A DNA stretch of 64,000 bases from Parcubacteria group bacterium Gr01-1014_38 (GCA_007376145.1 VMFP01000001.1:122835-186834), one strand, 5' to 3'. Counted from the stretch's first letter, positions 3,191-43,544 are shown. Numbers and translations: made by a program. Notes: a model not told the origin generated them from the sequence alone.

Positions 3191-4575
3191 CGGGTCAGTT
3201 GCATATGGAGCTCCTGGAGCTGCTCCCGTTCTAGGGGGGATGGAGCGCCGAGGAGTACTTCTTCCCCGTTCTGGTTCTTCGGGAACGCAATCACTTCTCG
3301 AATGCTCGGCTCGCGGAGCATGACCATGAGCAGGCGATCCACCCCAGGGGCAATGCCGCCGTGTGGAGGAACACCGAATTCAAAGGCCTCTAAGAGGTGC
3401 CGGAATTGCTGCTTCGCCTTCTCCATATCAAGGCCGATAAGCCCAAAGATCTTCTCCTGGAGCGCGCGGTCGTGAATGCGGATGCTTCCGCCGCCCACCT
3501 CGACGCCGTTGCAGACGAGGTCGTACTGTGTGCTCCGCACGCGGTGCGGATCCTGGTCGAGCACGAGGATGTCCTCCGGGAGGGGAGACGTGAACATATG
3601 GTGGGAAGGAGCGTAGTGCCCCTCTTCGAGTTCCGACTCGAAGAGGGGGAAATCCATCACCCAGGCGAACGCGAGCGCTCCCGACGCTTTCTCGGTGTCG
3701 GTGCGAAGGTCCGGGCGATCCGTCCCGTACTTCTCCATCGCTTCCGTGTAGGAGAGCCGCGGAAAAGGCTGCCGCGCAATCGGCGCGCCGAGGCTGGCCA
3801 CGACCGTCGTGAAGAGGTGTTCAGTCAGGTTCAGGACATCCTCGCGGCCGACGAAACTCATCTCGAGGTCGAGTTGGGTGAACTCGGGTTGCCGGTCTCC
3901 TCGCTGATCTTCATCGCGGAAACACCGGGCGATTTGAAAATACCGGTCGAACCCGGCCACCATGAGAAGCTGCTTGTACTGCTGCGGTGACTGCGGGAGA
4001 GCGTAGAACATCCCGGGATAGAGGCGGGAGGGAACCACGTAATCACGAGCGCCTTCTGGCGTACTCTTCGTGAGGATCGGGGTCTCAATTTCCAGGAACC
4101 CCTCCGCGTGAAGAAAGGCGCGAATTTCCGTGATGAACCGATCGCGCAGCGCGAGATTCCGCTGGAGGCGAGTCCGCCGGAGATCCAGGAAGCGGTACCG
4201 GAGGCGCACGTCCTCGCCGACCGGTGTTTCCTGTGCAATCTCAAATGGCGGAGTCTTTGCGACCGCGAAGGTCTCCACGGTCGCGACGTGCACTTCAATA
4301 TCCCCCGTCGGGATTTTCGGGTTCTTGAGGCGCTCCGGACGTAGAGCGACGGTGCCACTGACGCGGATCACGTCTTCGTCGTGAAGTTCGACCGGTGGTG
4401 CTTCTGCTTTGAATACGAGTTGTGTCACGCCGTACCGGTCGCGGAGATCGACGAATCGTACGCCGCCGTGGTCACGGCGGGCATGGACCCATCCGCAGAG
4501 CGTCACCGTCTGGCCGGCGTGTTCAGCGCGGAGCGCTCCGCAGGTGTGCGTCCGGTAGGTTGTCGCGTCCGTCAT
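3187..4575 (-). CDS. aspS: aspartate--tRNA ligase, bacterial-type core but only 462 aa
   Basis: ATG 4575. OB-fold N-terminus. Class II motif 2 region reads [52 protein letters not shown], and the C-terminus has GGGSIRIH...[16 protein letters not shown]. There is a 4-nt ATGA overlap with the peptidase gene. Confidence 0.94.
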
Positions 4576-20648: not shown

Positions 20649-22157
20649 ATGGTCTTGCACCTCTCGAATACGTTGACGAAAACGAAAGCAGAGATCACGC
20701 CAAGCAATCCCGACGGGATTCTGCGTCTGTACCACTGCGGGCCGACGGTGTACGGCACGCCGCACTTGGGAAACATCCGGCGATTCTTGGTCGCGGATCT
20801 CCTCGTACGGACCGCGCGGTTTCTCGGATACCGCGTGCGGAGCGTGATGAACATTACGGATGTCGGGCATCTCTTGGACGCTGACCACAATGCTGCGGGC
20901 ACTGACCGCATGCTCGTTGCCGCCCAGCGAGAGGGGAAAACGCCGCAGCAGATTGCGGCAAAGTACACAGCGGAGTTTTTCGAAGCACTCGCCGCAATAC
21001 GCGCGGAACCCGCGGACTACTACCCCCGCGCAACGATGCACATTCCGCAGATGCAGGCGATCATCCAACGCTTGATCGAGAAAGGATTGGCGTATGAGAC
21101 AAGCTCTGGCGTGTACTTCGATGTCACGAAGTGGCCGAGCTACGGGAAGCTCTCCGGGAATACGCTCGACGCTATCCGTGCCGGTGCGCGGGTGGATGTC
21201 CGCGAGGAGAAACATCATCCCGCGGACTTCGCACTCTGGGTCAAAGCGCCCAAAGAGCATCTCATGCAGTGGGACTCTCCGTGGGGCCGTGGCTATCCCG
21301 GTTGGCACATTGAATGTTCTGCGATGAGCATGCAGCTCCTCGGAGAGACCATTGATGTGCACACCGGCGGTAAAGACAATGTCTTTCCGCACCACGAGAA
21401 TGAAATCGCCCAAAGCGAAGGAGCGACGGGAATCCCCTTCGTCCACACCTGGCTCCATAACGAATTCCTCGAGCTGCAGGACCCTTCGACGGGCTCTGGG
21501 CAAGAGGAGAAGATGTCTAAGAGTGAGGGAGACATTCTGACCATCAACGATGTAAAAGCTCGCGGCTATGATCCGCTCGCTTTTCGGCTGCTCTGTCTCC
21601 AAACGCATTACCGCTCGAAACTCCACTTCTCGTGGGAGAGCATGGATGCGGCGGCATCTGCGCTGAAGAGTCTCCGTGATTTTGTCCGGAGGCTGGGAGA
21701 AGTGCGGGATGCGGCAACGGACAACAGGCAGCCGGTAGCAGGGAACGGACTTGCGGCGTTGGAGCAGCGATTTACCGACGCGCTGGCTGACGATCTGGGC
21801 TCCCCGCAAGCACTTGCGGCGGTGTTTGACTTTCTTCGTGAAGTGAATCCAAAACTCCAGTCAGGCGAGTTGGGCGCGGATGACGCAGAGGCGATTCGCG
21901 TGACGTTCCGGAAGCTCGATACCGTGCTCGCGCTCCTGGATGTGGACGTGCCACTTCCCTCCCCCGACGTTCCCGCCGAGGTTCAAAAACTTGTGGCCGA
22001 TCGCGAAGACGCCCGCCGCCGCCGGGATTTCGCTGCCGCCGATCGTCTCCGGAGCGACATCCGCGCTCATGGCTATACTGTCGATGACACGCCTCAAGGT
22101 CCGCGCGTTACGCAAAGTTCTACTGCTGGCGGAAATCGTACAGCGCGGACTTCTTGA
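20649..22157 (+). CDS. cysS: cysteine--tRNA ligase
   Basis: LYHCGPTVYGTPHLGNIRRF (HIGH-type motif), W.IEC, KMSKSEG. The 399-aa minus ORF 20610..21809 is its antisense shadow. Confidence 0.96.
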   Translation: MVLHLSNTLTKTKAEITPSNPDGILRLYHCGPTVYGTPHLGNIRRFLVADLLVRTARFLGYRVRSVMNITDVGHLLDADHNAAGTDRMLVAAQREGKTPQQIAAKYTAEFFEALAAIRAEPADYYPRATMHIPQMQAIIQRLIEKGLAYETSSGVYFDVTKWPSYGKLSGNTLDAIRAGARVDVREEKHHPADFALWVKAPKEHLMQWDSPWGRGYPGWHIECSAMSMQLLGETIDVHTGGKDNVFPHHENEIAQSEGATGIPFVHTWLHNEFLELQDPSTGSGQEEKMSKSEGDILTINDVKARGYDPLAFRLLCLQTHYRSKLHFSWESMDAAASALKSLRDFVRRLGEVRDAATDNRQPVAGNGLAALEQRFTDALADDLGSPQALAAVFDFLREVNPKLQSGELGADDAEAIRVTFRKLDTVLALLDVDVPLPSPDVPAEVQKLVADREDARRRRDFAAADRLRSDIRAHGYTVDDTPQGPRVTQSSTAGGNRTARTS

Positions 22158-22258
22158 CACGTGCCCGGCGCCCATGATAATTTCGTTTGCTGCTTCGTGT
22201 TGCTACTTCAGGGAAGTAGCGGGTGTCCTTTCACAATCTGAATCTGGAGGAACAAGCG

Positions 22259-23173
22259 ATGAGAAGATCCTTTCTAGAAAAGCTTGCTCGGTATTCCGAC
22301 GATTACTCTGCGGAGTGCCTCGTTCCCACCGGCAGCTTTTCGCAAGGCTGCTCAGTGGCCGATCACCGAAAAATGTGTGAGGAGTTTGATTACCACGTGT
22401 ATCCTCTTTCTTGGTTTGATGATGAGACTCCACAGCGACGGGTGTTCCTCTCCGCCTACTACATTGATCGCTACCCCATTACTAACGCGCAGTTTGCCCT
22501 TTTCGTTCTTGAGACTGGTTACGAGACAGTGGCTGAACAGTCGGAAGGTGGACTGGTGTTCACTCGGCGCGGGTGGGAGTGGGTAAGAGGTGCGTGCTGG
22601 TACAGACCGACGGGTCCGCGAAGTTCCGTCGGCAGGCGTCAGTATCACCCCGTTTGTCAGATTTCTTGGCGTGACGCTCATTCCTACGCCGCTTGGAGAA
22701 GTAAAAGGCTTCCAACGGAGTCTGAATGGGAAAAGGCCTGCCGAGGCACTGATGGAAGAAGATGGCCGTGGTCTAATGAGTGGAAACCAGGTGTTTGTGG
22801 CTCAGTAGAATATCACGCAAAAGCCAACTTTAACACTCGAGAGGAGTGGCGCAACTGGTGGGAATCAGTCTATCGGCCCCACCTTACTTTCACCAAGCCG
22901 GTTGGATCTTACCCTAGGTCAGTGTCTGTGTATGGCATCCACGACATGGTGGGCTGTTTGTACCAATGGGTAGAAGACTGGTATGGCCCCTACAGCAGGA
23001 AAGCTACGTATAGAGGAGAATACGGTTACTTTCTAGGAAGAAACACGCTGAAGGTTGTGCGTGGCGGATGCTGGATGAATTTTAAGTTCCAAGTCAGAAC
23101 GTGTGAACGCATGGCGTCAGCCCCGCTTGTCTCTACATTCGTGCACGGTTTCCGATGCGCTCGCACCGCGTAG
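22259..23173 (+). CDS. FGE-sulfatase (SUMF1/DUF323) domain protein
   Basis: YYIDRYPITNAQF, HPVCQISWRDAHSYAAWRSKRLPTESEWEKACRG, GIHDMVGCLYQWVEDWY, VVRGGCW...GFRCAR. The start is placed at ATG 22259 (GGAGG 8 nt upstream) rather than GTG 22223. Confidence 0.85.
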   Translation: MRRSFLEKLARYSDDYSAECLVPTGSFSQGCSVADHRKMCEEFDYHVYPLSWFDDETPQRRVFLSAYYIDRYPITNAQFALFVLETGYETVAEQSEGGLVFTRRGWEWVRGACWYRPTGPRSSVGRRQYHPVCQISWRDAHSYAAWRSKRLPTESEWEKACRGTDGRRWPWSNEWKPGVCGSVEYHAKANFNTREEWRNWWESVYRPHLTFTKPVGSYPRSVSVYGIHDMVGCLYQWVEDWYGPYSRKATYRGEYGYFLGRNTLKVVRGGCWMNFKFQVRTCERMASAPLVSTFVHGFRCARTA

Positions 23174-23281
23174 GACGGTTTGTGTTCGGTTTTACCGAGT
23201 CTCAGATTTATACACAATCGAGTCAGAAATCAGGCTGAGTCTTGGTGGCTCGGCGTAATGACAAAGAAAGAGAGGCATCCT

Positions 23282-24034
23282 ATGGACAGACCTAATGTAG
23301 GACTCGTTGTTACAGGTGGAAGTACCGGTATCGGTCGCAGCATTGCTCTCGAATATGCTGCAGCCTATCCAAAGTCGAGCGTTGTCCTTGTTGCACGGGA
23401 GAAAGGTAGGCTCACAAAGGTTAAAGGAGAGATTGAGAGGCGCGGATCAAGGTGTATTGTATATGCAGGCGACCTGCGTGACCCAGCATTCATTCAGGGT
23501 TTCATTAGGGACATAAGGCTTCGAGGTCTCTCGATAACCCATCTGGTGAATAATGTGGGGTCGTCGCGCGAAGGCTCAGGAATTCTGAGCGTCACCGGGG
23601 AGGAGTGGTACGCTTCACTTCAGCTGAACCTAAACGCCGCATTTTTCTGCGCTAAAGGCGTGGTCGAACTGATGCTAAGCAAGGGTTGGGAGGGGGCGAT
23701 TGTGAATGTAAGCGCAATTGCTGCCCGTATCGGAATGCCTAAAGTTGCATTCACAACAGCGAAAGCTGGGCTGATTGGAATGACACGGTCACTCGCTCGT
23801 GTATTAGCCGCTCATGGAATTCGAGTGAACGCAGTTCTCCCTGGAGCTATCGATACTCCCGCAACTCGACATTGGACAGAAAGACAACGCAAGGACATCT
23901 GCCGGAAGATTCCTCTCGCCCGCATCGGCAAGCCCGAGGAAGTGGCTTCGGTCGTGGTATTCCTGCTTTCAGAGAAAGCCTCGTACGTTACCGGCCAGAC
24001 CATTGACGTTAATGGTGGCTGGCACATGAAATGA
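23282..24034 (+). CDS. short-chain dehydrogenase/reductase (FabG-like) with FxxxK in place of YxxxK
   Basis: TGGSTGIG, NNVG, NVSAIAA, VAFTTAKAG, PGAIDTP. ATG 23282 has GAGG 6 nt upstream; ATG 23258 is an alternative. Confidence 0.87.
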   Translation: MDRPNVGLVVTGGSTGIGRSIALEYAAAYPKSSVVLVAREKGRLTKVKGEIERRGSRCIVYAGDLRDPAFIQGFIRDIRLRGLSITHLVNNVGSSREGSGILSVTGEEWYASLQLNLNAAFFCAKGVVELMLSKGWEGAIVNVSAIAARIGMPKVAFTTAKAGLIGMTRSLARVLAAHGIRVNAVLPGAIDTPATRHWTERQRKDICRKIPLARIGKPEEVASVVVFLLSEKASYVTGQTIDVNGGWHMK

Positions 24035-24050
24035 GGTTACTGATTATTCC

Positions 24051-24083
24051 GAGCGTATTCACGCGGTGGGTACGCTCTTTTCT
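24051..24083 (+). terminator. intrinsic terminator after the SDR gene
   Basis: GAGCGTA-ttcacgcggtggg-TACGCTC followed by TTTTCT. Confidence 0.68.
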
Positions 24084-24267
24084 GTGTCTGTACAAAGATG
24101 GATGATGTGGAATATGCTTTCGTGGCTTCGAAGAGATTCTGAGGCAACGGACCTAGTACCGCTTTCGTATCAGTAGTGCAAAAAAGTGCTTGAAAGACAG
24201 ATTCGTGACCTTTCACTGAAGCTTATGATTCAATGCCAACCACGAGATTCAAAAAGTCAACCAAGTA

Positions 24268-24765
24268 ATGTTTATCGTCTCTATGGGGAATAACGCGTTG
24301 GTAGAGTGTACAACTCTCTACGGGGATCGGAAGTTAGTGAAAGCAAGTGCACTGACGTTCCGCCCAGCGGCTTACGCACTTGTTTTGCGTGAAGGCAAGT
24401 TGTTGCTCGTAAATACGCGGAGTACAGGAAAGTGGTTCTTCCCGGGCGGCGCAATCGAGCGGGGGGAGACGATGAGAGATGGTATCCTGCGAGAGGTCCG
24501 GGAGGAAACCGGAGTCGAAATTGAAGTCAGGGAATTGTTTCAGTGTAAAGAGAGCTTTTTTTACTATGATCCTTGGGACGCCGCATACCATAGTTTCTCC
24601 TTCTTCTACACCGCCGTTCCAAAGACCTTTGAATTGACGGAAGCGTATAACGCAGAGGATAAGGAGGCGAAAAGTCCCGCGTGGGTAGACGTGAAACAAC
24701 TTAAAGCAAGCGATTTCCAGTTACTCGCGGGAGAAATATTTGAGGCATTCATTCGCACAACATAA
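24268..24765 (+). CDS. NUDIX hydrolase
   Basis: The Nudix box G-x5-E-x7-REUxEExGU is present as GGAIERGETMRDGILREVREETGV. Confidence 0.88.
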   Translation: MFIVSMGNNALVECTTLYGDRKLVKASALTFRPAAYALVLREGKLLLVNTRSTGKWFFPGGAIERGETMRDGILREVREETGVEIEVRELFQCKESFFYYDPWDAAYHSFSFFYTAVPKTFELTEAYNAEDKEAKSPAWVDVKQLKASDFQLLAGEIFEAFIRTT

Positions 24766-24826
24766 AATCTGTGGGGGTATGTCTCGGAAGTGGACGCACG
24801 TTTTACCGTCGCGTTTCGTTTTTCAC

Positions 24827-37777: not shown

Positions 37778-39082
37778 TCACAGTCCGCGCGCTTCGTACT
37801 CTTTCGCGACGGCCAAGACGCGATCCCCGTACCACGTGAATCGCTGCCAGTTGGGCCCTGCGAAGTATCGGTTCACCGCTTCAAATTCGCTGCCGGACGC
37901 CGCACCGGCGTTTCGGAGAATCACCGCGGTGCCGACGAAGGCGTCAAGGAGTTCGAACGGACTCGGGATCTCCTTTCCGGTGATCCGCGCCACATCCGAC
38001 TCGATGCGCTCCCAGATGCCCGGGAGAATTTGGCCTGGCCCCATCGCGCCTCCCCAGCCTGCGTAGCTGGTCGGTTTTGCGGATACGGGTGTGGTCGCCG
38101 GATCGAGGTCCAGTCTCTTCGTGACGCGGAGGAACGCGTCTCGGTGGTCGGGGTGAATGTCATCCGGATACCGGCCGGACCCCACGTTCGTTCCGATGTT
38201 TGATTCGACCTTTAAGACGCCGAGGAGAAGCGCCGGCCGCACGCCCGCTGCGCTCCCGGCGAACCGCGCGAAATCCTCCGCTTGCTTGAGGGAAAGCCGG
38301 ATTCCGGCATTCCGCAACAGGAAGATTTCCTGCTGGATTTCTCGGCGCGCCTCTTCTGCCTCTGTGACGAGCGACGAGAGCCGAGCGGCTTCCGCCGCCG
38401 TGCGGGAGAGCGCCGTCCGCTTCCGGCTCTCATCCTCTTGCAGCGCTGCGCGCTGGGCCGCTTGAAGTTTGGCGAGTTGTTGCAGATCGTCACGGCGATT
38501 GCGCAGATCGGCTTCCCGCGCTTCGCGAGCCGTTTTCAGCTCCTGGGTCTGCACCAGGAGCGCGGTCGCGTGCGTCTGAATTCTCACCAGCGCTTGCTGG
38601 GTGCTGAAGAAATCGGCAAAGGTGTCACCGGTGAGAAATGTCTCCAGCGGTGAACGTTCGTCAACGGTGGCCAGAAGACGAAGGGTGAGTCGCATCTGCT
38701 CCCGCAGTCGCTCCTGCTTCTTGGAAAGGCCGCCCAGCTCTTCCGTGGTTTGACGGATCCGGATTCGAGCTTCTTCGATGGACACCCGCGTGTAATCCAG
38801 TTCGAGGCGCGCTTGTTTCACGCGGTCTTCCAGAATTTCAACGGCGTCCGTGAGTCGCGACTGCTCTCCCTCCTTTTTGGAGCGAGCGTCTTTGAGCACG
38901 CGAATTTTCTCTTGGAGTTCCTGGAGCTCCGCTTCCTTCGCCCCCAGTTCCGACGACAGCGGATCGTCTGCGGACGGCGTGCTTGCTGGTTGATCCTGTC
39001 CGTGAGTGTTGGAGACAGCCGCGATCACTCCGCCAAGGAGCACGATGCCGAGAACGAGGAACCGGCGCATCGTGCTGATCAT
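37778..39082 (-). CDS. coiled-coil protein with C-terminal lytic transglycosylase (MltB/SLT_2-like) domain
   Basis: N-terminal anchor MISTMRRFLVLGIVLLGGVIAAV, a long heptad-like region, and a C-terminal LLLGVLKVESNIGTNVG...YAGWGGAMGPGQILPGIW. Confidence 0.8.
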   Translation of the reverse strand: MISTMRRFLVLGIVLLGGVIAAVSNTHGQDQPASTPSADDPLSSELGAKEAELQELQEKIRVLKDARSKKEGEQSRLTDAVEILEDRVKQARLELDYTRVSIEEARIRIRQTTEELGGLSKKQERLREQMRLTLRLLATVDERSPLETFLTGDTFADFFSTQQALVRIQTHATALLVQTQELKTAREAREADLRNRRDDLQQLAKLQAAQRAALQEDESRKRTALSRTAAEAARLSSLVTEAEEARREIQQEIFLLRNAGIRLSLKQAEDFARFAGSAAGVRPALLLGVLKVESNIGTNVGSGRYPDDIHPDHRDAFLRVTKRLDLDPATTPVSAKPTSYAGWGGAMGPGQILPGIWERIESDVARITGKEIPSPFELLDAFVGTAVILRNAGAASGSEFEAVNRYFAGPNWQRFTWYGDRVLAVAKEYEARGL

Positions 39083-39149
39083 AGCACGTACGCTTCGTCC
39101 GGTTCTGCGTCGCGTGCGCGTAAACGAGGCGCGCGTGTGCGGCGGCGCG

Positions 39150-39617
39150 TTACCGAATGCCGATCAAGCGTGCAAGATCCTGCCAGCCGCTTCCCCGCTC
39201 TTCCGACCGGAGGTTCTCGAGCGTGAGCGGCCGTACGATACGGATCGGAGCGGAGCCGCCTTCGGGTCGGTACGGATCCAGGTTCAGGAGGTGGCGGTCG
39301 TTGGTAATCACCGCATCTGCTTTTCCCTCCACCGCAGCCGCGAGGACCTTGTCGTCCTCGGGGTCATCCTGAACGACGTGGGGCACCGTCGCCGGGTGAA
39401 CCGTTTCCGCCGCAGCGAGAAACGCGCGAATCTGTTCCTCGTGCCCACGGACGTTCACGGTCTTGGAAAGGATTTCCTCGTACTCACCCCGCAGCGCCGG
39501 GCTCACGATCGCGGTGAGCTCTTCCCGCATACAGGCCTCCACAATCTTCCACGAGGCGGAGAGTTCATCATACGCGCTGCTCACGAGCACGTTGGTGTCC
39601 AGGACAACCCGTTTCAT
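39150..39617 (-). CDS. PIN-domain toxin (155 aa)
   Basis: MKRVVLDTNVLVSS..., ...DDKVLAAAVEGKADAVITNDRHL carries the PIN acidic residues (D in VLDTN, E, D in ITND). Confidence 0.88.
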   Translation of the reverse strand: MKRVVLDTNVLVSSAYDELSASWKIVEACMREELTAIVSPALRGEYEEILSKTVNVRGHEEQIRAFLAAAETVHPATVPHVVQDDPEDDKVLAAAVEGKADAVITNDRHLLNLDPYRPEGGSAPIRIVRPLTLENLRSEERGSGWQDLARLIGIR

Positions 39618-39621
39618 GCCA
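39524..39621. repeat. 98-nt segment (PIN 5' end) duplicated at 42538..42635
   Basis: Manual alignment: 90 of 98 positions are identical to 42538..42635. 6 of the 8 differences are synonymous third positions. Confidence 0.9.
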
Positions 39622-39883
39622 TGGAAAATTTCCCTTCAACAACTTCCTTCGTCAGTGCTTCGATGACGCGCGGCATGTCGGTGTCGGGAATTGTACCATC
39701 CGTGGACAGCGCATCCGCTTCCGCGAATGCCAAAGTACCCGTGGGAGCGAATCTCCGTGTCGGGATGAGGAACGCGCGGTTCGGCATCGTGACGGGTCCG
39801 GCGGACGCCGATAGCCAGGACATGGCTGTATCTCCACGCAGTCTCGGGAAGAACAAAGCACCAACGCATTCCACGATTTCCAC
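39614..39883 (-). CDS. candidate antitoxin upstream of the PIN toxin (start uncertain)
   Basis: ATGA overlap with the PIN start. The C-terminus ..DMPRVIEALTKEVVEGKFSMA weakly resembles the small ORF upstream of the truncated PIN copy. No recognisable fold motif. Internal Met codons give 20-57 aa alternatives. Confidence 0.42.
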   Translation of the reverse strand: MEIVECVGALFFPRLRGDTAMSWLSASAGPVTMPNRAFLIPTRRFAPTGTLAFAEADALSTDGTIPDTDMPRVIEALTKEVVEGKFSMA

Positions 39884-39973
39884 CCATCCTAACCTCGCCG
39901 CCGGGCTGCTTCAAGGAAAAAGAGACGAGAAAAAAGGCGAGCATCCGTACGGTCGGTACACAGATCACAGTCA

Positions 39974-40010
39974 CAAAAAAGCCCCGCGACAGTATACGTG
40001 TCAACGGGGC
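39974..40010 (-). terminator. intrinsic terminator after the lipoprotein / exoprotein cassette
   Basis: Minus strand: GCCCCG-ttgacacgtatactgtcg-CGGGGC followed by TTTTTTG. Confidence 0.62.
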
Positions 40011-40087
40011 ACTAAAGTGCAGTTTTACCATAGAAACATCATGCTCGTGGAAGAAAGTTCGCCAACCCATGCAAGTGTCCTTCACCG

Positions 40088-40528
40088 CTAATCAAACTTC
40101 TCCTTCAGAATCTCCACGGGCCTGCCTTCGTGTTTCGAGACGACCTCGTTGATTTTCTGGTAGAAGGCATCCGATTCCAAGTACAGCATCCCCCACTCGG
40201 TGGCCAGGTTGGTTGGCTCCGGGGAGAACTTTGCTTTGAAGCGCTTTTCCTCGGCAGGGAAGAAGAACCATACCACGGCGACGTCAGGAAAGGCAGGATG
40301 CACATCCTTCCATGTCTCCCTCACCTTCACCGTCGAGATGATGTCTTTCACCTGCTTGGGATCGGAGATGACCAGGGATTTCGGTTGCTGGTTGATGTGA
40401 TAGTCGATCTTGAGCTTGTTCGCCTGTCGTAGATCGGGTAGTTCCGGCTTCTTAAGACAGCCGGGGACCAAGAACAGAGCGAACAATGAACCAATCGCCA
40501 GGGAACCTCGTGGTAAACTACATGCCAT
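40088..40528 (-). CDS. probable lipoprotein, 146 aa, unknown function
   Basis: ATG 40528 with a strong AAAGGAGG SD. The signal ends in FLVPGC (lipobox-like Cys). More AT-rich than the genome by eye. Confidence 0.7.
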   Translation of the reverse strand: MACSLPRGSLAIGSLFALFLVPGCLKKPELPDLRQANKLKIDYHINQQPKSLVISDPKQVKDIISTVKVRETWKDVHPAFPDVAVVWFFFPAEEKRFKAKFSPEPTNLATEWGMLYLESDAFYQKINEVVSKHEGRPVEILKEKFD

Positions 40529-40549
40529 AGAGACCTCCTTTTACTTGGT

Positions 40550-42427
40550 TTAGTCGGGTCTTCCGTTCGTGCTGACGCGCAGTCGGGCACCGCGAGGGAC
40601 TCCGACCCAGCCAGCGTGACCACGATCCGGCGCGATACTATAGACACACTCGGTATACCCTCGCACCTTCGCCGTGACCGTCGCGTTGCTCAGGAGCATG
40701 GACAGAAGATGCAAGTAATTGTCTGGACGATCGATGCCGGACGAAATATGACAACCCATCAGGCTGAGTGTATCAATCTTGCCGCGCAGGAGTTCGCCAA
40801 ACGCCGAAGCCTCATGGAGCGGGTTCTGCCGAAGACAACGATTTTCGCCTGCTCGGTTACACAGCCTGTTGCCAGCACCGACATGCTGCGCATCGGCACT
40901 GCCATGTCCATAGATCCACACATGTAACGGGCTGCCGCGGTAGTAGTCACGCACCGTCTGGATGGCAGCGGGGATGGAGGCAACAAGCATTGTATAACTA
41001 GCAAGCCGGCGGGATCTCATAATCGCAAGATCAGTGTCGTGAGTGGCGTCCCGATACTCTGGAGGTGGGTTTTCGATCAGGATCAGCGTGGTATTGGCCG
41101 CAGTTGGGTGTACAGCCGCAACGAATTTTTCCGTCTGGCCTTGGCCTTGTCCCGCATCAGCCGGCGGGCTGGCAACATTGATGAAGAAGGTGCGCGTTTC
41201 GCCTCCCCTAAACGCGACCTGCACCCCATACACGCCTGGCCGACGAGCCAGAAAGTATACTTCAGAACAGTTCTCTGCCTCGTAACAATCACCGTCGGGA
41301 TCGTCGGGATGACGGTTCAAGCGAAAGAAGCCATCGTAGTCCCAATCCGGGTCCGTGATGGACTGTTGAGCGCGGTATGGGTCGCTCTCCCCCCGAGGAT
41401 CAGGTGCCACGATCCGCAGCTCTTCCATCCTTTGGGGATACGATTCGTAGTACCATCCCCCCTCGCCCATGAAAGCCATCGGGTGCTCGGCCAGCTCTGG
41501 CCCTTCCCAGCTCGTGTCCGCGTCAGTGTCGTATAGCGTCACCGTTCGATCATAGACGAGCCCGTTGTACGCCGGATCCTCACTGACCGTTGTGTGTCGA
41601 AGGGTGCCGGTGTGTATGAACGGCTCATTACGGAAGTCTCTGCATCCCCTGACGACGATCTCCTCACTGCCCTGCCACCAAGAGGCGTCGAAGAACAACC
41701 AGCTCTCACTCGGACAGACCTGATTGTCTGGCGATGTAATGAAAACCTCGACATTGGCGCTGGGCTGGCTGGTCAGTCCGACGTCATACACATTCCGAGG
41801 CCACCAGCTGTCAGGATCTCCTTCCTCACTGAATGACTCCGGCGCCTGGACACCGGTCGGATGGCGAGGAGTGATAACGAGGCCAGCCTCGCTAGCTCCT
41901 GTGCTGCCACTGGATGCGCTGACTGCCCCAGTGAGAGCCGTCACCGTATTATTCCAGTGGATTGCCAAGAGGAGCACAGATGCATACGTGCCTCCGCTAG
42001 AAGCTTCCAGCGCCGGTGTCGCGGCACCCCAGTGGCTACCACCGTTATCCAGGGTAGAGGCAGCGGGTGCAATGGCACGGGAGGGAGTACGAGCGACAGA
42101 AAGCCATGCTTCGCCGAAATCTCCGAAATCGCTGTTGACCGAAGGAAGCGATGGCTCATCGTCTACACTTTGAGCTGCTGGCCGGTCCTGGCTTTGCCGT
42201 GGCGGTTCCTCCGGGAAAAGTGACCACCATTTCTCATCCCGAGCCTCATCCTGCTGGTCTGCACCAGCGATACTGATTTCCATCGGCTCCTCAGTCAGCA
42301 AGCGAATCTGATCGGCTGTATGTGCTGCCCCGAAATCAGGCAGTGCAAGTGCAAGCAGATCGCCAGGTGGCAGGCGATCTTCCAGGGCTTCAACCCGGAA
42401 TACGGTACGTCTTTTGCCTTTGAGCAT
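40550..42427 (-). CDS. large secreted-type protein (625 aa) with an LEDR-type N-terminus, an adhesin-like middle and a C-terminal His/Cys domain
   Basis: ATG 42427 with a GAAAGGAG SD. N-terminus MLKGKRRTVFRVEALEDRLPPGDLL. Middle segment SQPSANVEVFITSPDNQV...WWQGSEEIVVRG...HTGTLRHTTVSEDPAYNG...VTLYDTD. C-terminus LHVWIYGHGSADAQHVG...LSLMGCHISSG. Confidence 0.75.
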   Translation of the reverse strand: MLKGKRRTVFRVEALEDRLPPGDLLALALPDFGAAHTADQIRLLTEEPMEISIAGADQQDEARDEKWWSLFPEEPPRQSQDRPAAQSVDDEPSLPSVNSDFGDFGEAWLSVARTPSRAIAPAASTLDNGGSHWGAATPALEASSGGTYASVLLLAIHWNNTVTALTGAVSASSGSTGASEAGLVITPRHPTGVQAPESFSEEGDPDSWWPRNVYDVGLTSQPSANVEVFITSPDNQVCPSESWLFFDASWWQGSEEIVVRGCRDFRNEPFIHTGTLRHTTVSEDPAYNGLVYDRTVTLYDTDADTSWEGPELAEHPMAFMGEGGWYYESYPQRMEELRIVAPDPRGESDPYRAQQSITDPDWDYDGFFRLNRHPDDPDGDCYEAENCSEVYFLARRPGVYGVQVAFRGGETRTFFINVASPPADAGQGQGQTEKFVAAVHPTAANTTLILIENPPPEYRDATHDTDLAIMRSRRLASYTMLVASIPAAIQTVRDYYRGSPLHVWIYGHGSADAQHVGAGNRLCNRAGENRCLRQNPLHEASAFGELLRGKIDTLSLMGCHISSGIDRPDNYLHLLSMLLSNATVTAKVRGYTECVYSIAPDRGHAGWVGVPRGARLRVSTNGRPD

Positions 42428-42492
42428 GCGAGTGCTCCTTTCAAAAAGAAAGAAAATTGTCTAAAGAGCTGGAAAAATACTACACGAAGCGA

Positions 42493-42521
42493 AATATAGA
42501 GAAAAAGAGGGCAACTGTCAA
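42493..42521 (-). promoter_or_regulatory. sigma70-type promoter of the 625-aa gene
   Basis: Minus strand: TTGACA (42521..42516), a 17-nt spacer, then TATATT (42498..42493). The TGA that ends the truncated PIN copy lies inside this -35 hexamer. Confidence 0.6.
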
Positions 42522-42631
42522 GCCTCCGGTCTCTCTCCCCGCATGCAGGCCCCCACAATCTTCCACGAGGCGGAGAGTTCATCATACGCGCTGCTCACCA
42601 GCACGTTCGTGTCGAGTACCACCCGGTTCAT
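42518..42631 (-). pseudogene. truncated PIN toxin paralog (37 codons)
   Basis: MNRVVLDTNVLVSSAYDELSASWKIVGACMRGERPEA-stop. The first ~31 codons match the intact PIN gene at 39617, then homology ends abruptly at 42538. A 34-codon antitoxin-like ORF (42628..42732) overlaps its ATG by ATGA. Confidence 0.72.
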
Positions 42632-42635
42632 GCCA
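42538..42635. repeat. second copy of the 98-nt PIN 5' segment
   Basis: See 39524..39621. Confidence 0.9.
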
Positions 42636-42791
42636 CCGCGAACTCCTCTTCAACAAGTACGCCTTCGCGAACTACCACTGGTTTGTCGGCGCACTCCTTG
42701 CCTTCGGTGCCGCGGTGGGAATGGCGGAGCATGCCGCCGGGTCGGCCAGCTCCGCTCCGGCAGCCTCGTCTCTCGCGACATCACATCAAGG

Positions 42792-43544
42792 CTACCGGCG
42801 GATGAGCATGCTGATACTCGTGGCGCCAAGGTTGCTGATGAGGAGCGAGACAAGGAAGGGGTCGGGAATCGGCAGCCTGCCCCCCGGGAGCGAGAACAGC
42901 AGGGTTAGGACTGCGACGCCAGCGCCAAACGCTGTTCGCAGCCATGCGGGCTGATACGCGGTTGTCACCGGCTCGATGAGCATGACGGTGGCGAAAAAGA
43001 ACAGGGTGCCATCTACGAAGAGCGCGCGGAGATCGGCGACGCTTCCTCCGCGCGAGAGGAGGAGCGCACTTGCTCCAACCACGTAGACGACAAGGAAGGC
43101 AAGCGCGGTTTTCCAGCGCTTCACCCGGAACATCGTGACGATGCCGGAGAGCACGATGACGACGAGCGGAATCCGGCCCCACGCCGAACCCCACCAGGAC
43201 ACGATCGCTGCGGACGGGAAGAGAAACCCGAGGAGAACCAGCGCCGAAGCAGCGGGGTTGAAGATGTGCTTCTGCTTGTAGCGGATGAAGTGCTTGCCGA
43301 GGCTTGCCACGACGGGCGCGAAGAGCACGGCAAGCCAGGGCGCCGCGGGGGCCAGCACGAGAGAGAGAATGAGTCCGGAAATCCACGCGGAACTTGGGGC
43401 AATGAACTTCCCTTCCCGCCGTTTCGAGAGAGCGAGGTCCAGGACGGTGTAGATCGCGACTATCGCCAGACCGCGCCAGAGGAGAGACCAGTTCCCCACT
43501 CCCCACGCGCCGAGCACAAGAAGAAAGCCGAGGTAGAGAACCAT
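42792..43544 (-). CDS. RnfD/NqrB-like polytopic membrane protein (orphan)
   Basis: About 8 hydrophobic helices, with KHIFNPAASALVL resembling the RnfD/NqrB family FNPA segment. ATG 43544 is chosen. The ORF-track GTG 43730 adds a low-complexity 62 aa and overlaps the secA end. Confidence 0.55.
   Translation of the reverse strand: MVLYLGFLLVLGAWGVGNWSLLWRGLAIVAIYTVLDLALSKRREGKFIAPSSAWISGLILSLVLAPAAPWLAVLFAPVVASLGKHFIRYKQKHIFNPAASALVLLGFLFPSAAIVSWWGSAWGRIPLVVIVLSGIVTMFRVKRWKTALAFLVVYVVGASALLLSRGGSVADLRALFVDGTLFFFATVMLIEPVTTAYQPAWLRTAFGAGVAVLTLLFSLPGGRLPIPDPFLVSLLISNLGATSISMLIRR

Follow-up and report, generated by a model that had tools for sequence, protein, structure and literature searches.

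Flexible genomic islets at conserved hot spots carry strain-specific cell-surface genes, and genomic islands that bear a replacement end of their target gene are a case related to Campbell integration. Homology-facilitated illegitimate recombination and, in E. coli, the single-crossover integration of circularised linear DNA have both been described (PMC3240628). Orphan fragments are known at the T6SS (type VI secretion system) effector-immunity arrays of Vibrio cholerae and as orphan modules of Rhs and contact-dependent inhibition (CDI) loci, where displacement leaves orphan genes whose proposed origin is homology-facilitated illegitimate recombination (PMC5361080). In this study we analysed a PIN-domain gene and the two-gene cassette upstream of it in a 64,000-nucleotide (nt) stretch of DNA (VMFP01000001.1:122835-186834 of GCA_007376145.1), called the window below, which lies within a contig of 245.5 kb. 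The contig belongs to the metagenome assembly of Parcubacteria group bacterium Gr01-1014_38, an uncultured groundwater bacterium. All genes of this locus are on the minus strand, and left or upstream means higher window coordinates. The 5' end of the PIN gene occurs a second time on the far side of the cassette, as a 124-nt direct repeat. We propose, with moderate confidence, that this duplication is a scar left by recombination at an insertion hot spot whose content varies among strains, and that its upstream copy is the displaced 5' fragment of a PIN allele.

For comparison, PIN orthologs of 64-90% amino acid (aa) identity were collected, and gene order was determined by tblastn with the window proteins in nine related loci (L001, L009, L011, L012, L013, L014, L015, L016 and L017); a further sequence, L018, is a variant of the cassette. 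The features on which the argument turns are the following, where ORF stands for open reading frame.

42657..42791, minus strand: spacer U1, without a DNA match in any relative
42533..42656, minus strand: upstream repeat copy (R'), 124 nt, 87% identical to 39519-39642 and 91% identical to L001 3749-3869
42518..42631, minus strand: truncated PIN ORF of 37 codons, matching PIN_3 profile positions 1-32 (E = 9e-4)
42526..42532, minus strand: illegitimate join of PIN codon 33 to the cassette's promoter end, with about 3 nt (GAG) of possible microhomology
39519..39642, minus strand: downstream repeat copy (R), found by repeat search and forming the 5' end of the intact PIN gene
39150..39617, minus strand: intact PIN_3 gene, 155 aa (PF13470, E = 6.6e-22; TIGR00305, E = 2e-13)

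The original prediction, made from the sequence alone, had reported 90 identical positions out of 98 between 39524-39621 and 42538-42635. Counting again gave the same number, and a repeat search extended the duplication to 124 nt with 87% identity (39519-39642 and 42533-42656; blastn E = 2.8e-39). There are two copies in the 64-kb window and no third. The repeat consists of 25 nt 5' of the PIN ATG and PIN codons 1-33, and a run of 46 nt is perfectly identical between the copies (+33 to +78). Six of the eight differences within the 98-nt stretch are synonymous, as had been stated, and two are non-synonymous (K2N and E27G); a third non-synonymous change, E32G, lies one base past this stretch. 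As predicted, the frame of the upstream copy ends after 37 codons at a TGA (42520-42518) that falls within the TTGACA -35 box of the cassette promoter. The truncated ORF retains the first acidic residue motif only (VLDTN), and its residues 1-33 are 100% identical to the N-terminus of the L001 PIN protein. The upstream PIN copy is dead DNA.

PIN homology stops at 42533 and homology to the L001 cassette begins at 42525. At the junction, PIN codon 33 abuts a position 12 nt upstream of the -35 box, and because the sequence shared there is at most about 3 nt (GAG), we regard the join as illegitimate. Left of it, the RnfD-like gene, the spacer and the PIN 5' end are collinear with the empty-site arrangement described below. 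An assembler that concatenated two strain variants might also have produced such a join, given that co-occurring strains with different content at this position are found in the same samples (ERZ27245926, for one, yielded both L001 and L014). This explanation is improbable in the extreme: the stretch of about 3 nt that the junction shares with either parent is much shorter than any k-mer, the two copies differ at 13% of sites and hence are no collapsed or expanded repeat, and the remnant ORF is on record on two contigs of different length classes. These results support the earlier description of a dead PIN 5' fragment abruptly joined to a self-contained operon upstream of an intact PIN gene.

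The order RnfD-like gene, PIN, SLT-like gene of 434 aa and UvrD-like helicase is conserved among the relatives. RnfD-like, PIN and SLT-like (/UvrD) genes are kept in L001, L009, L012, L015, L016 and L017, and PIN and SLT-like in L011, L013 and L014; SLT-like orthologs stand 3' of PIN in every relative that reaches that far. The flanks in the window and the content of the slot between RnfD-like gene and PIN in each relative (with aa identity of its PIN) are listed here. L011, L013 and L014 end before the RnfD-like gene, and their entries give the sequence available upstream of PIN.

42792..43544, minus strand: RnfD/NqrB-like membrane protein gene, left flank, 250 aa (PF03116, E = 1e-11)
37778..39082, minus strand: 434-aa coiled-coil SLT-like gene, right flank, with a weak SLT_2 match
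L012 (PIN 76%): empty site, 2 nt between the RnfD-like stop and the PIN ATG
L015 and L016 (PIN 66%): empty site, the PIN ATG lying 32 nt after the RnfD-like stop
L017 (PIN 68%): a 401-aa gene
L009 (PIN 75%): a coiled-coil protein gene, an 83-aa ORF and a gene with a HIT domain, the last overlapping PIN by ATGA
L013 (PIN 74%): more than 4.4 kb with coiled-coil ORFs and an IS1595 transposase
L014 (PIN 81%): a DDE_3 transposase fragment and a serine-recombinase fragment (PF07508, E = 1.2e-13)
L011 (PIN 82%): more than 0.66 kb, no called genes
L001 (PIN 90%): the same two-gene cassette as in the window

Exactly one PIN match was obtained per locus by tblastn in all nine loci. From this and the synteny we conclude that PIN is a single-copy, vertically inherited and often partnerless gene. 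Its orthologs occupy the same position over the whole range of identities, the acidic motifs VLDTN, EYEEIL, DDK and ND are conserved in seven of them (judged by eye), and the gene is under purifying selection, with a ratio of non-synonymous to synonymous divergence (dN/dS) of 0.23. No sequence match for PIN was found in the PDB. This Parcubacteria lineage has an insertion hot spot between the RnfD-like gene and PIN, with content that differs from strain to strain.

The single PIN gene bears directly on the origin of the upstream copy, which the original prediction had taken for what was left of a second PIN paralog after the cassette had replaced most of it. Under that explanation, two tandem antitoxin-PIN paralogs were ancestral, and the cassette took the place of the 3' four-fifths of the upstream paralog, of which an orphan antitoxin stub and a dead toxin remained. 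The order RnfD-like gene, stub, PIN 5' end would suit a first locus of this kind, and the fragment does have the orientation of the intact locus, with a stub of the latter's upstream ORF in front of it. However, two PIN genes were found in none of the nine related loci; in three relatives PIN lies directly after the RnfD-like gene, at 2-32 nt and without an antitoxin. The L001 locus has the same cassette with the same left end and no remnant, which speaks against a cassette that replaced a paralog. The mostly synonymous differences between the copies, read earlier as a sign that both had evolved as functional paralogs, favour tandem paralogs no more than alleles, for which the same bias is expected.

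Comparison with the PIN genes of relatives bears on the two possibilities. In the 99 duplicated coding bases, the remnant differs from L001 PIN at 4 positions, from window PIN at 9 and from L014 PIN at 13, and the quartet-informative sites divide 4:0:0 for (remnant, L001)|(window PIN, L014). A paralog older than the split between window and L001 should branch outside both orthologs; the remnant does not, and nests within ortholog diversity beside L001 PIN. Each repeat copy corresponds to an allelic type that exists elsewhere as a single-copy gene. The two copies are best read, from these placements, as two alleles of one gene from co-occurring strains, and we consider tandem paralogs unlikely.

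Exchange between strains is also visible in the intact gene. Window and L014 are 98% identical from -165 to +38 (4 differences in 203 nt; window 39577-39780, L014 929-1132) and 79% identical over PIN nt 99-468. The 203-nt tract points to recent recombination between co-occurring lineages. Window and L001 PIN are 97% identical over nt 200-468 and about 80% over nt 99-200. The latter segment (window 39417-39518) is thus about 20% diverged from L001 and the following 268 nt 3.4%, which implies further recombination breakpoints inside the gene. From this patchwork of identities we conclude that PIN is a mosaic that arose by homologous exchange between lineages living together. Simple recombination between two parents was tried as a model for it and rejected, as PIN nt 99-200 has no close match among the available relatives.

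Upstream of the intact gene lies the ORF that had been called its antitoxin.

39614..39883, minus strand: ORF upstream of PIN, overlapping it by ATGA, of which only the last 55 codons (39780-39618) are conserved

The conserved part shows 93% aa identity to L014 and 47% to L013. No match was found in Pfam, NCBIfam, PADLOC or PHROGs, and in L013 the conserved stretch has no start codon. What is left of the ORF measures 25 codons in L011, about 20 in the window remnant and about 9 in L001; it is absent in L012, L015 and L016, and a different gene takes its place in L009 and L017. Substitutions between window and L013 fall 28/16/34 on the three codon positions, which gives a mildly coding look. 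The reading of the ORF as an antitoxin thus finds no support: no conserved cognate antitoxin gene was found beside PIN in the relatives compared, and the missing family match and, in L013, start codon also count against tandem antitoxin-PIN paralogs. It behaves instead, as far as its truncation pattern suggests, as a variably truncated 3' relic of something that formerly preceded PIN. Two candidates for its origin were rejected. The HIT gene of L009 gave BLASTP E = 0.35 and the ORF no Pfam match, and an alternative frame of the L014 recombinase runs into the window sequence merely through the 95% DNA identity and is not conserved in L013.

The conserved part begins at about -165 in three loci (window ~39780, L014 ~929, L013 ~4262), and the DNA upstream of that point is wholly different in each: cassette tail, serine-recombinase fragment and IS1595. 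The shared start could reflect a selected element or a preferred insertion point.

A trace of the same relic accompanies the remnant. Spacer U1 and the first 25 nt of the upstream repeat copy carry the 34-codon ORF (42628-42732) that the original prediction had described, including its ATGA overlap with the remnant. Its last ~20 codons bear a weak likeness to the C-terminus of the ORF upstream of PIN (DKPVVVREGVLVEEEFAVA vs DMPRVIEALTKEVVEGKFSMA, judged by eye), the DNA aligning over the last 25 nt only. The supposed orphaned antitoxin remnant stands as a trace of the ORF preceding PIN and is unsupported as an antitoxin.

The DNA between the two repeat copies contains these features.

39881..42525, minus strand: cassette block common with L001 (blastn vs L001 937-3557, 80% nt identity), comprising promoter, two genes, terminator and a 92-nt tail
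42493..42521, minus strand: sigma-70-like promoter, TTGACA, 17 nt, TATATT (11/12 matches)
40550..42427, minus strand: 625-aa cargo gene, an ORF with an Arg-rich N-terminus with ALEDR motif and one putative Calx-beta-like adhesin-type repeat
40088..40528, minus strand: 146-aa putative lipoprotein gene, an ORF with an LVPGC lipobox seen by eye
39975..40010, minus strand: GC-rich intrinsic-terminator-like hairpin followed by T6, identified by folding, its stem conserved in L001 and L018
39781..39880, minus strand: 100 nt between cassette tail and conserved relic ORF, without a match in any relative

The promoter, both ORFs with their strong Shine-Dalgarno sequences (AAAGGAG and AAGGAGG) and the terminator (hairpin 40010-39975 + T6) are all present as predicted. 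The promoter is the only such site found within 38900-43000, and its -35 box is conserved in L001. The hairpin was not called by a terminator scanner, probably because its loop exceeds 8 nt. Searches for Rfam families and structured elements in 38900-43000 found none. In L001, an unrelated 83-nt spacer stands before the cassette in place of the PIN fragment, and 191 nt unrelated to window 39880-39643 follow it. The L018 variant (803 nt, lipoprotein 85% identical) has the lipoprotein gene and terminator in common with the window and diverges directly after the terminator. From the comparison with L001 and L018 we conclude that the module proper is formed by promoter, 625-aa gene, lipoprotein gene and terminator.

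The cassette has a G+C content of 56.0% (same-size windows: 61.3 +/- 2.8%), and its tetranucleotide distance exceeds the mean by 3.8 standard deviations, a level that only a second island at 21-24 kb also reaches; third-position G+C is 0.60 and 0.71 in the cargo genes and 0.70-0.79 in most other genes compared. These statistics agree with the earlier claim of a foreign cassette as regards composition. Nucleotide identity between window and L001 is 89% in the RnfD-like gene, 92% in PIN, 95% in the SLT-like gene and 80% in the cassette. Nei-Gojobori estimates of synonymous divergence (dS) and of dN/dS for window vs L001 are as follows.

RnfD-like gene: dS 0.30, dN/dS 0.21
625-aa cargo gene: dS 0.36, dN/dS 0.55
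lipoprotein gene: dS 0.43, dN/dS 0.20
PIN gene: dS 0.21, dN/dS 0.23
SLT-like gene: dS 0.17, dN/dS 0.10

Since the dS of the cassette (0.36-0.43) is similar to that of the RnfD-like gene (0.30), the cassette is no recent import, and no donor lineage could be named from the homolog searches, so that a foreign origin is not supported, atypical as the composition is. Judged by its synonymous divergence, the cassette has about the age of the split that separates the window genome from that of L001, and would predate it. The low identity (68%) of the large cargo protein is accounted for by its dN/dS of 0.55, indicating relaxed or diversifying selection.

The direct repeats flanking the insert (42532-39643) resemble the ends of an integrated element. 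We therefore considered whether they might be attL and attR of a site-specific element of about 3.0 kb (cassette, relic ORF and PIN 5' end) that targets the PIN 5' end and carries a replacement for it, mobilised by a recombinase in trans, for example of the L014 serine-recombinase type. The 46-nt identical run could host the crossover, and an exchange between the two copies would release the cassette and leave an intact PIN right after the spacer; empty sites exist in L012, L015 and L016. In addition, a recombinase fragment (PF07508), seen at this site in L014 only, and IS elements in L014 and L013 lie immediately upstream of PIN, and three unrelated insertions abut at about -165. The ends of the cassette, however, do not match the repeat, L001 having no left repeat and L018 diverging after the terminator. 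No recombinase or integrase gene is present in or near the insert of the window, the repeats are only 87% identical, and large serine recombinases are not known to create 124-nt duplications. An excised or empty variant of this strain is not on record either: the PIN cluster at 90% identity has two members, presumed to be window and L001. Such an element seems doubtful to us. A more far-reaching version, in which the PIN 5' end is a dedicated docking site where modules integrate and excise through the duplicated PIN segment with a recombinase in trans, is highly unlikely; the L014 serine-recombinase fragment would then be a relic of that recombinase, and strains would swap surface proteins while regenerating an intact PIN each time.

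Other element classes also fit poorly. The ends of the cassette carry no paired inverted repeats and no transposase was found, although an insertion sequence or transposon would be expected to have both, and the conserved 26-nt tail motif occurs once in the window. As for an integron cassette, the module has its own promoter and terminator and no integrase is found among the called neighbours (attC sites were not searched for with a dedicated model).

A recombination scar at a variable slot accommodates the evidence best. In this genome the slot holds an operon of 2.6 kb that is autonomous, since promoter, Shine-Dalgarno sequences and terminator are all its own. Next to it would lie a displaced PIN 5' fragment with a trace of the relic ORF, the fragment being joined to the promoter end of the cassette by a junction at microhomology level. 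Recombination would in this way have set the PIN alleles of two strains side by side. Two routes are conceivable. Incoming linear DNA may have been joined by homology-facilitated illegitimate recombination, anchored in the RnfD-like gene or in PIN. Alternatively, a fragment may have circularised and then integrated by a Campbell-type single crossover, which would duplicate the homologous segment.

Several points weigh against a scar of this origin. The allele-like placement of the remnant is based on 99 nt with 4 informative sites and could be mimicked by tandem paralogs that underwent gene conversion. Simple models of either kind, Campbell or illegitimate recombination, do not account for PIN nt 99-200, and the microhomology of only about 3 nt at the junction is uninformative. 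A window-like ancestor with later loss of the remnant in L001 is just as parsimonious. No third genome covers the left end of the cassette, L018 spanning the lipoprotein gene and terminator only, and the relatives are all metagenome contigs, several of them short. Overall, the observation behind the original prediction was confirmed, whereas its interpretation was partly supported.

Among 5.8 billion sequences, the 625-aa protein has one close homolog, with 68% aa identity. An exhaustive HMMER search yielded 574 distant matches (E <= 1e-3), all through residues ~207-305. This region is a repeat of ~95 aa with the pattern W..Q.V.V...D...E...H.G.I.H...S.D..Y.G, present in up to 53 copies in giant proteins, some of which bear Calx-beta or Big_13 domains (Pfam) elsewhere in the chain. 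Looking up the clusters of these distant matches yielded neither informative names nor taxa. The 625-aa protein itself gave no Pfam match even at E <= 10, also when split into four pieces, and nothing usable was found for the cargo proteins in Pfam, NCBIfam, PADLOC or PHROGs. The sole family match of the lipoprotein is a weak PHROG of unknown function (E = 0.0036); it has two homologs only, 85% and 80% identical, both within variants of this cassette. Viral contigs contained no matches for the repeat core, the cargo or the lipoprotein. An AlphaFold2 model of the 625-aa protein from a two-sequence alignment was unusable (mean pLDDT 28). A likeness of the C-terminal GHG...GC region to DUF4347 was supported by no test and was dropped. 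The 625-aa protein and the lipoprotein are probably a cell-surface pair.

The cargo N-terminus (KGKRRTVFRVEALEDRLPP; window 42330-42427, residues 1-33) lacks a hydrophobic signal peptide of the classical type. Its ALEDR fits a motif, LE[DEQ]R, that is also N-terminal in 3 of 127 Met-starting distant matches, which are giant repeat proteins, and that may be a shared export or sorting signal.

Variation was also observed on the other side of PIN. L001 has an insertion of ~127 nt between PIN and the SLT-like gene (4272-4392), absent from the window, with three strong hairpins (DNA fold z = -3.95) resembling a small repeat element; its main hairpin was found nowhere in the window. At the same place, L012 (5952-6179, 75 aa) and L009 (~3705-4034, ~109 aa) have a small ORF that the window lacks, so the PIN/SLT-like junction is variable too. 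A small coiled-coil family ending in ...LERRIETLE(K/Q)QQ belongs to the contents of the slot on the RnfD-like side and is multi-copy in L009 (1722-2309) and L013 (1662-2018 and 2452-2712). The RnfD/NqrB-like gene is stand-alone in the window, L001, L009, L012, L015 and L017, with no other Rnf or Nqr subunit genes nearby.

Farther off in the window, the second compositional island (21000-24800) follows directly after cysS and has the most deviant tetranucleotide usage of the window. It also has the lowest G+C content, 50.9% over 2.6 kb from 22151. Its genes encode an FGE-sulfatase-like protein, a short-chain dehydrogenase and a NUDIX protein.

The locus is a fresh example of known genome dynamics and no new kind of system. 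A very small hot spot in an uncultured bacterium of the candidate phyla radiation has different content in almost every related genome, and a 200-nt tract was recently exchanged between lineages whose identity is otherwise ~80%; the two findings are evidence of inter-strain recombination shaping these reduced genomes. The findings also correct an annotation reflex, because the "PIN toxin" here is a conserved, syntenic and often solitary gene rather than a mobile toxin-antitoxin module. The cargo, a putative surface protein paired with a lipoprotein, is a reasonable candidate for strain-specific contact with a host or the environment. These results should be of use to research on recombination and surface variation in bacteria of the candidate phyla radiation.

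Compared with type II toxin-antitoxin systems (VapBC/PIN), the locus has a PIN_3 domain with acidic residues and a small upstream ORF that overlaps it by ATGA. Unlike in such systems, PIN is single-copy, syntenic down to 64% identity and alone in three relatives, and the upstream ORF, truncated to different lengths, lacks a domain of antitoxin type.

The orphans of T6SS, Rhs and CDI loci would be similar in that a homologous flank serves as anchor, the join to the new module is illegitimate, part of the former gene stays beside it and content varies among strains. In contrast, the fragment described here is the 5' end of a housekeeping-like PIN gene instead of an immunity gene or toxin tip, it retains no function, and the inserted module, which bears a promoter and a terminator of its own, has no relation to it. 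With Campbell integration the locus shares direct repeats of a gene end around the insert, a target that is intact on one side, and the expectation that recombination between the repeats would restore the empty site. It differs from it by the absence of an integrase, by repeats that are 87% identical and by the L001 cassette, which has no left repeat.

Flexible genomic islets come close in several respects, having the same flanks, strain-specific content, fast-evolving putative surface cargo and atypical composition. Unlike those islets, the slot analysed here is very small (0 to >4 kb) and belongs to uncultured Parcubacteria, and the duplicated gene end remains in it as a visible scar.

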